Assembly (NCBI RefSeq): GCF_003334305.1
Contig: NZ_QOWS01000003.1
Length of the DNA stretch: 64,000 nucleotides
Source: Escherichia coli
GTDB lineage: Bacteria; Pseudomonadota; Gammaproteobacteria; Enterobacterales; Enterobacteriaceae
Strand: one strand, 5' to 3'
The position numbers were made by a program, and so were the translations under genes. The first letter of the stretch is position 1; each line of letters opens with the position of its first letter. Shown piece after piece: positions 58,398 through 59,089 of the stretch. The notes beneath the pieces were generated by a model. The model searched no databases. It was not told the origin of the DNA and worked only from the letters and a program-made list of their open reading frames with translations.

Positions 58398-58970
58398 AAT
58401 AGAAACTCATTCGAAAAGGGAATGATGCAATGATAATTGCCACAACCTATTTTTACCATCTATAGATGGGTTTATTTACATATTATTGGTGAATGCAAGA
58501 CGTTATTTTTACCAGCCATAAACTTCTTGATTACATGGTATTAAGAAAGGATTTTACTGAGAACCAGAAGTAATATTCCTTACCATCAAAATTCATCATC
58601 TTTGCCAAAGAAAAATGTTCAGAAAATAATCCATGGAAAATTGTCCGGAGCGCTTACTATTTTAATGGATTGTTAGTCTTTGCATGAGCAAGCGGACTGA
58701 TACATTTCTCTTTGTTCTCATTCAGAAAATCTCATCAGTCGGCGTTCAGACCGGTGTTGTGCTTTATGGATGCGTTACGCTCCTGATGACGTCATTTGAC
58801 GTTCAACAACATCACGGGGCCGCACGACATTTCACGTCAGTTAGTGCTATCGCTCAGGAACAAATTTTCCCGAATTGGGATATGCCCGCAAATTGCTGGT
58901 GATGTGGGGAGAATCTGGTTGAGTTCGGGAGAATTGATTTGGAGGCAGAACGCTTAAATCGTGGCGTCCT

Positions 58971-59002
58971 GAAACGAAAAACGGACCTCCGTGGAGGTCC
59001 GT
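58971..59002 (-). terminator. intrinsic terminator of pheU
   Basis: minus strand AACGGACCTCC-ACGG-AGGTCCGTT hairpin followed by TTTTCGTTT, 11 nt after the tRNA 3-prime end. Confidence 0.8.
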
Positions 59003-59013
59003 TTATATGAATT

Positions 59014-59089
59014 TGGTGCCCGGACTCGGAATCGAACCAAGGACACGGGGATTTTCAATCCCCTGCTCTACCGACTGAGCTATCCGGGC
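59014..59089 (-). tRNA. pheU: tRNA-Phe (GAA anticodon)
   Basis: 76-nt exact reverse complement of E. coli tRNA-Phe: GCCCGGATAGCTCAGTCGGTAGAGCAGGGGATTGAAAATCCCCGTGTCCTTGGTTCGATTCCGAGTCCGGGCACCA. Confidence 0.97.

Follow-up and report, generated by a model that had tools for sequence, protein, structure and literature searches.

The tRNA-Phe gene pheU is a textbook hotspot for the insertion of islands, and Salmonella Typhi carries SPI-7 at this gene. Similarly, phage P4 integrates into the 3' end of the tRNA gene leuX and regenerates the tRNA in doing so. After integration into the 3' end of a tRNA gene, island-type sequence should be found downstream of the gene, and for a pheU gene that is followed by no island the question arises whether its attachment site was never used or has been used and cleared. 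The yjdC-cadC interval at pheU was described as a main insertion site for papGII islands and the LEE, and the islands found at pheU and pheV use one integrase in common (PMC7686366; bioRxiv 10.1101/549998).

Here, this question was addressed for the pheU locus on a 64-kb stretch of Escherichia coli DNA, which is referred to as the window throughout. The original prediction, made from the letters alone, had described an empty site, i.e. a tRNA gene followed directly by its own terminator and by AT-rich sequence up to cadC, with neither an integrase nor a direct repeat of the tRNA 3' end and with a single 72-aa ORF of no recognisable features. Our analysis indicates that pheU is indeed unoccupied today, but that the site is very probably scarred, the spacer next to it being a remnant of the left end of an ancient island with a P4-type integrase.

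Results

Layout of the pheU locus

On the minus strand the genes are arranged in the order cadB, cadC, spacer, pheU and dicD/yjdC, followed by dsbD, cutA and dcuA (Table 1). tRNA-Phe(GAA) was the only tRNA called by ARAGORN at the locus, and an Rfam scan of 58200-59300 at E <= 1 returned the tRNA alone, with two other matches far below the gathering score. The pheU sequence is identical to that of the K-12 pheV tRNA. The spacer between pheU and cadC (58398-59013) is 616 bp long and has a GC content of 40%, compared with 51.6% for the 64-kb window, with dips to about 30% within 58400-58650; the AT-rich stretch up to cadC had thus been described correctly. The ORF listing contained no intact integrase ORF between pheU and cadC, no cargo genes were found there, and the spacer showed no similarity to the rest of the window, for example to the chromosomal eptA gene (30409-32097).

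Over 58398-59089 the window is 98.8% identical to K-12 (it is not K-12 itself) and 100% identical to strains EC11, STK39-3-E and 50EVAW. In strain 50EVAW the match comes in two pieces (NZ_CP138407.1 3755852-3757320) with an IS1 transposase annotated between them, placing an IS1 inside the pheU-cadC spacer. In strain STK39-3-E, which is otherwise near-identical to the window, an IS1 splits melB (L092 18423-19120); the ORF coordinates and an offset of about 0.8 kb in gene position beyond melB suggest that this IS1 is absent from the window. Copies of tRNA-Phe were also seen on plasmids, namely in six or seven places in the genome collection. One of them, on a 187-kb plasmid (NZ_CP137739.1 37307-37388), is 97.6% identical to pheU and includes 6 nt of flank.

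Table 1. Features at the pheU locus, in window coordinates.
Feature	Position	Strand	Basis
cadB	55160-56494	-	
cadC	56859-58397	-	
cadC-proximal leader/promoter segment, not assignable to an island	58398-58495	-	alignment
Phosphoethanolamine-transferase (EptA-family) gene tail, about 25 codons and stop	58496-58573	+	blastn, peptide alignment
Post-integrase island sequence	58574-58653	-	alignment to L008
Integrase C-terminal relic, residues ~358-420 and tandem stops	58654-58824	-	tblastn, alignment, annotation
72-aa ORF	58684-58902	+	antisense to integrase relic
Junction of the ~1.05-kb internal deletion	58816-58826	.	global alignment
Integrase, first 11 codons	58818-58850	-	tblastn, DNA alignment
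Island-type left arm (int-proximal attachment arm), tRNA end to integrase start	58851-59013	-	alignment to L008, L007
Terminator-like hairpin, 11-bp stem, 4-nt loop, then UUUUUCGUUUC	58979-59004	-	pattern scan, folding
23-nt attachment core TTCGATTCCGAGTCCGGGCACCA, tRNA 3' end joined to present-day islands	59014-59036	-	break points in island-bearing genomes
pheU, tRNA-Phe(GAA), 76 nt including CCA	59014-59089	-	ARAGORN; Rfam RF00005, 68.3 bits
dicD/yjdC	59196-59771	-	

An integrase relic and further island remains in the spacer

The intact island of strain 401656 (locus L008), in which 197 nt separate the tRNA from the start of the gene for a 420-aa integrase, was used as reference. Aligned over 97% of its length, this integrase shares 54% identity with phage P4 Int, and it contains the Pfam domains Arm-DNA-bind_3, Phage_int_M and Phage_integrase, by which the intact homologue of the relic described below is classified as P4-type.

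Window positions 58496-59013 were found to be collinear with the left end of intact pheU islands. The stretch 58881-59200, of which 58881-59013 belong to the arm, aligned to the tRNA and arm of L008 with 95% identity (blastn, E = 2e-147) and was likewise 95% identical to a second island locus (L007), while 58851-58880 aligned to the intact island with indels. When the intact pheU-island integrase was searched against the window by tblastn, its residues 359-420 (E = 4e-11) and also its residues 1-11 were recovered. The latter read IALTDVKCRAA in the window and MALTDAKIRAA in the intact protein, the ATG being mutated to ATA (ATA GCA CTA ACT GAC GTG AAA...). A global alignment to L008 is collinear apart from one jump of about 1.05 kb (from L008 ~3872 to 2821), by which integrase codons ~12-357 are taken out. 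As the first 11 codons and the arm survive, this corresponds to an internal deletion rather than a 5' truncation, and yjdQ, the K-12 counterpart of the relic, reads as a gene that lost an internal segment and not its 5' end.

The C-terminal relic is frameshifted; a 16-nt deletion takes away the catalytic Tyr codon, a further 14-nt deletion lies beyond, and the conserved tandem stops TAG TAA are found at 58659-58654. By blastn, 58512-58824 matched the 3' end of the L008 integrase gene and the sequence beyond it (67% identity, E = 1e-31). Beside the pheU 3' end an integrase is thus represented only by a relic of about 200 bp, in the expected place and orientation, in which a complete three-domain frame with the catalytic Tyr is absent; the window copy is a pseudogene and not a working integrase. 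It is annotated accordingly: RefSeq E. coli genomes carry at the equivalent of window 58657-58816 (-) a PGAP pseudogene 'tyrosine-type recombinase/integrase, frameshifted, incomplete', and the MG1655 pseudogene yjdQ (b4654) maps to 58654-58816. The claim that no integrase is present therefore holds for an intact ORF and fails for a remnant. A remnant of this kind within 58398-59013 had itself been named as the observation that would speak against an empty site, and the comparison with island-bearing strains, which had been proposed as a check, yielded collinearity with an island left end instead of a clean site.

Other integrases were considered as kin of the relic. A second integrase type found at pheU (L009, 396 aa) proved unrelated by blastn and tblastn, and among the integrases of Leclercia, Trabulsiella, Klebsiella and Salmonella arizonae none was nearer to the relic than the E. 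coli L008 type.

Island sequence continues beyond the integrase stops, where a 25-nt block (58606-58630) is 96% identical to L008. It is followed by the tail of a transferase gene that matched the 3' end of the L009 transferase gene with 77.5% identity (blastn). In a peptide alignment this tail scored 65, compared with 21 +/- 3.8 for shuffled sequences, and 0 of 2000 shuffles scored as high. A tblastn search of the spacer with the transferase C-terminus returned nothing under default statistics, the match having come from direct alignment with the shuffle control. The tail is convergent with the integrase, as is the transferase gene or gene fragment in intact islands, and L008 has an annotated fragment in the same relative place. 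The remaining segment next to cadC (58398-58495) aligned to L008 with about 60% identity, which is noise level; it is near-identical in the three other Escherichia lineages described below (L012-L014) and is the best-conserved part of the spacer across Escherichia.

The hairpin downstream of pheU is of the island type

The hairpin begins 9 nt past the tRNA 3' end, its stem is followed by a U-rich tract, and its folding energy is -19.4 kcal/mol (z = -4.1). A GC-rich hairpin with a U tract directly after pheU has the sequence hallmarks of an intrinsic (rho-independent) terminator, and pheU transcripts would presumably be ended by this predicted structure.

To this hairpin, the terminators of other pheU genes were compared. 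For this, 80 dicD-pheU loci were fetched, one genome per species, and the 73 with an exact tRNA copy were read. Most other genera have a native terminator of the form CTATTTAAAGAACCC(A/G)GCC....GGC(T/C)GGGTTTTTGCTTT, which is mutually similar across about 70 dicD-pheU loci and whose carriers include Citrobacter, Enterobacter, Klebsiella, Kosakonia and Salmonella diarizonae. The sequence downstream of K-12 pheV (L011 1943-1990) contains the terminator GAACCCGCC..GGCGGGTTTTTGCTTT, which is nearly the same as this native pheU terminator of most Enterobacteriaceae genera (loci L018-L091 were compared with pheV). The similarity indicates that the two tRNA-Phe loci share an ancestral 3' flank that was lost at E. 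coli pheU. The native type, GAACCC(A/G)GCC...GGC(T/C)GGGTTTTTGCTTT, is absent from the whole 64-kb window, and a conserved motif that follows the native terminator in other genera, sought window-wide as an ancient attR, was not found.

Among the 73 loci, the window hairpin AACGGACCTCCACGGAGGTCCGTT was seen after pheU only in Escherichia and at five loci of other genera, namely Leclercia (L059), Trabulsiella (L071), Klebsiella spallanzanii (L088), Raoultella (L091) and Citrobacter amalonaticus (L019). Three of these five loci have a full-length L008-type integrase and one an N-terminal fragment; at the C. amalonaticus locus, where the hairpin is present, no integrase was detected after pheU. 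As the hairpin is confined, apart from the C. amalonaticus locus, to Escherichia and to genomes with the L008-type integrase or its remains, it appears to have come with the island, and it is classified by this distribution as island-derived and not as the native tRNA-Phe terminator. The window accordingly lacks the native flank that marks a virgin attB in island-free relatives. A terminator-like hairpin does follow the tRNA as predicted, but it is not the tRNA's own.

The scar is shared with other Escherichia lineages

The whole spacer, followed by cadC, was also found in E. whittamii (L012, 85% identity), in Escherichia sp. E1V33 (L013, 91%) and in a divergent lineage labelled E. coli SCPM-O-B-8794 (L014, 76%). 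All three have the integrase deletion junction in common with the window. The 16 nt lost by the E. coli relic are still present in L012 and L014, and L014 in addition retains the integrase ATG and extra bases at the deletion junction. A junction common to all three lineages, together with lesser losses that differ between them, indicates that the large deletion was one old event and that decay is ongoing. The scar probably predates the split of E. coli from E. whittamii and the other Escherichia lineages and appears now to be fixed. In E. albertii NBRC 107761 (L017), where 680 nt follow pheU to the contig end, the same arm and hairpin were found and N-terminal integrase residues ~15-41 were recognisable, though frameshifted. 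The integrase has thus decayed differently, which points either to partly independent decay in that species or to a second copy.

The attachment core and its present-day occupancy

Where a genome carries an island, its match to the window on the cadC side ends at 59036. This boundary of the core was taken from sampled rows of split genomes, in which breaks occurred at 59036 (or 59034) and in a few cases at 59062-59064; SPI-7-type ICEs use a longer core of 49-51 nt, reaching to 59062-59064. A second copy of the 23-nt or the 16-nt pheU 3' end, allowing up to 3 mismatches, was not found on either strand of the 64 kb, in agreement with the reported lack of a direct repeat. A segment of the cadB-cadC spacer (56517-56532, TGAATTTGGAGTCCGG) was tried as attR, as 14 of its 16 positions match 59008-59023. 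It comprises 10 nt of tRNA with 2 mismatches and then 6 flanking bases, running into the arm and not along the core, and 14 similar two-copy families arise by chance in the same 3.3 kb; the match was judged to be chance.

Occupancy of the site was surveyed in 5,426 complete E. coli genomes. The region was matched in all of them (5,426/5,426), with at least 80% of 58398-59089 in one place in 5,218. A probe covering relic, arm, tRNA and upstream flank (58760-59150) was contiguous, as in the window, in 3,739 of the 5,426 genomes (69%) and interrupted in about 31%. The arrangement of the window, with no island between pheU and cadC and with an intact 23-nt core, is hence that of the majority; in the sense of current occupancy the site is empty as predicted, while the integrase remnant within 58398-59013 marks it as scarred. 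A shorter junction probe of 221 nt (58930-59150) was discarded as an empty-site test, since new islands bring an arm that is about 90-95% identical to that of the scar and the probe was covered to at least 80% in 5,213 of 5,426 genomes, which is uninformative.

The occupied sites that were sampled carry the LEE, a CP4-like island with propanediol and defence genes, or an SPI-7-type ICE. In strain 401656 (L008/L093, NZ_CM128583.1 4704199-4747511) a 43-kb island with afa/dra adhesin genes and others is located between pheU with the intact integrase on one side and the scar on the other. It is bounded by a direct repeat of about 156 nt with 90% identity, consisting of the 23-nt core and 133 nt of arm, and one base is deleted in the distal core copy. 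Judged by the break points of these islands, the core at 59014-59036 would still be a usable attachment site. At least 5,218 of the 5,426 E. coli genomes, as well as other Escherichia species, have the relic arrangement; what varies between strains is the additional, newer island. Of the marks of an occupied island, the window itself lacks a far repeat of the tRNA 3' end and presence/absence polymorphism.

Gene content on the pheU-distal side

The pheU-distal side was compared in synteny with six other genera or lineages; genes in common with the window were found only in Enterobacter soli, and an island boundary was not found in this comparison. At the E. soli locus (L049), proP (91% aa identity) and homologues of yjcZ/rdcB and crfC (58-61%) are located within 1-7 kb of pheU. 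Their homologues in the window are found at 23597-28466. Between pheU and proP the window contains cadCBA, dtpC, lysU, ghoST, dcuSR, dcuB, fumB, mel, adi and eptA-basRS (named after their counterparts in the RefSeq annotation of STK39-3-E, a closely related strain).

Discussion

The observed homology, collinearity, deletion junction, phylogenetic distribution and population frequencies can be arranged into an order of events by analogy with the established behaviour of P4-family integrases. A P4-type tyrosine-integrase island would have entered pheU by recombination between its attP core and the last 23 nt of the tRNA gene, whereby the tRNA 3' end would have been rebuilt by the island and the island's own downstream arm, including the hairpin, brought in. 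Later deletions would have removed about 1.05 kb inside the integrase gene and everything beyond the transferase tail, including the distal repeat (attR), and what remained of the island between pheU and the cadC leader would be about 520 bp of dead DNA. The integration event itself and the original extent of the ancient island, whose distal attR was not found, are likewise reconstructed. The regenerated 23-nt core would still serve as a target, such that newer islands insert between pheU and the scar (in about three of ten E. coli genomes) and push the scar to the cadC side. Their long, near-identical arms could permit RecA-mediated loss of newer islands as well as gene conversion. Gene conversion of the arm would account for the unequal similarity to present-day islands, which amounts to 95% in the arm and to only ~67-85% in the integrase parts; if arm and integrase have a single origin, either a stronger constraint on the arm or such a later conversion is required.

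The integrase relic as such was already known. At the same locus of K-12 MG1655, yjdQ has the same sequence as the window relic, and we take it to be the P4-like integrase remnant of EcoGene/EcoCyc. No paper on yjdQ came up in the literature collection that was searched. Its annotation comprises the C-terminal 160 bp only ('missing N-terminus'), to which the window alignments add the 11 first codons, the arm with the hairpin, and the transferase fragment. Among present-day elements, the pheU/pheV islands (papGII PAIs, the LEE in O26-type STEC/EPEC, CP4-like islands) share with the window the core, the integrase family, a left arm with 95% identity and the convergent order of integrase and transferase fragment; unlike the window, they encode a complete 420-aa integrase, carry cargo of tens of kb and possess a further copy of the core at the distal end. 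Phage P4 has an integrase of the same three-domain architecture as the intact relative of the relic, but its target is a tRNA-Leu instead of a tRNA-Phe gene, and the window copy is a dead fragment without P4 genes. The SPI-7-type ICEs are likewise inserted at pheU in some E. coli strains, but have a longer core and an unrelated arm and show no kinship with the relic.

It could be asked whether the ancient island is still in place, with the cadCBA block, possibly together with dtpC-lysU and genes beyond, as its cargo, so that pheU would in effect remain occupied by a very old, fixed island with yjdQ as its integrase. Among the loci compared, cadC is adjacent to pheU only in Escherichia, and within about 9 kb downstream of pheU in other genera no CadC homologue was found, only ToxR-like matches of 30-32%. 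cadC and its surroundings are AT-rich (37-42% GC), and in E. soli proP and the yjcZ and crfC homologues directly follow pheU, while in the window they are about 31 kb further off. However, neither a distal core repeat nor a native terminator is present in the 59 kb beyond pheU, the GC content of cadBA is ordinary, and the transferase fragment reveals a deletion between the relic and cadC, so that the adjacency of the two may be secondary. Moreover, the pheU-distal region differs in every genus examined, and E. soli alone does not define an insertion. We therefore regard a cad cargo as unlikely. A related and equally doubtful extension is that the whole spacer is domesticated island DNA, fixed before the divergence of Escherichia and supplying the pheU terminator, with the acid-resistance genes cadCBA(-dtpC-lysU) possibly as cargo.

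Far less probable is a transfer in the reverse direction, in which the spacer is native and modern islands took the arm from the chromosomal flank by imprecise excision. The arm, with 95% identity, is indeed far more alike between window and islands than are the integrase parts. The collinearity, however, runs on through the integrase gene and beyond it, and members of this integrase family are accompanied by the same hairpin and arm start in Leclercia, Trabulsiella, Klebsiella and Raoultella, among whose relatives the native terminator is found.

It is also highly improbable that a real product is made from the 72-aa ORF or from elsewhere in the spacer. The ORF is open in L013 and in those E. 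coli genomes that were compared, but in E. whittamii (L012) it is frameshifted by a 16-nt indel, and in L014 it lacks a start and has internal stops. It is annotated neither in RefSeq nor in MG1655, and the Rfam scan gave no family but the tRNA. Described earlier as featureless, this ORF does have an identity on alignment, being the antisense strand of the integrase relic and not a conserved gene.

That the site is a pristine one that was never occupied, with its own terminator and a native AT-rich spacer, is hardly credible despite the lack of an intact integrase, a tRNA 3'-end repeat and cargo genes between pheU and cadC, as the start and end of an integrase, an island-type arm and a transferase fragment are collinear with intact islands, the window lacks the native terminator seen in other genera and at pheV, and an integrase pseudogene is annotated in RefSeq and K-12.

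The collapsed island end at pheU is thus an ordinary finding of little import for biology at large, to which the internal deletion, the island-derived terminator, the surviving transferase tail and the genus-wide scar are added here as small refinements. If the spacer were domesticated, island DNA would come as close as about 100 bp to the cadC start and may join the H-NS-bound, AT-rich control region of cadC; a literature search for a mapped cadC transcription start gave nothing usable. For surveys of this hotspot, calls of an 'empty site' at pheU that are based on short probes or PCR can mislead. The repeats of about 156 nt that flank the island of strain 401656, and those of newer pheU islands generally, are long enough for a possible RecA-mediated loss of the island, which may restore exactly the arrangement seen in the window.
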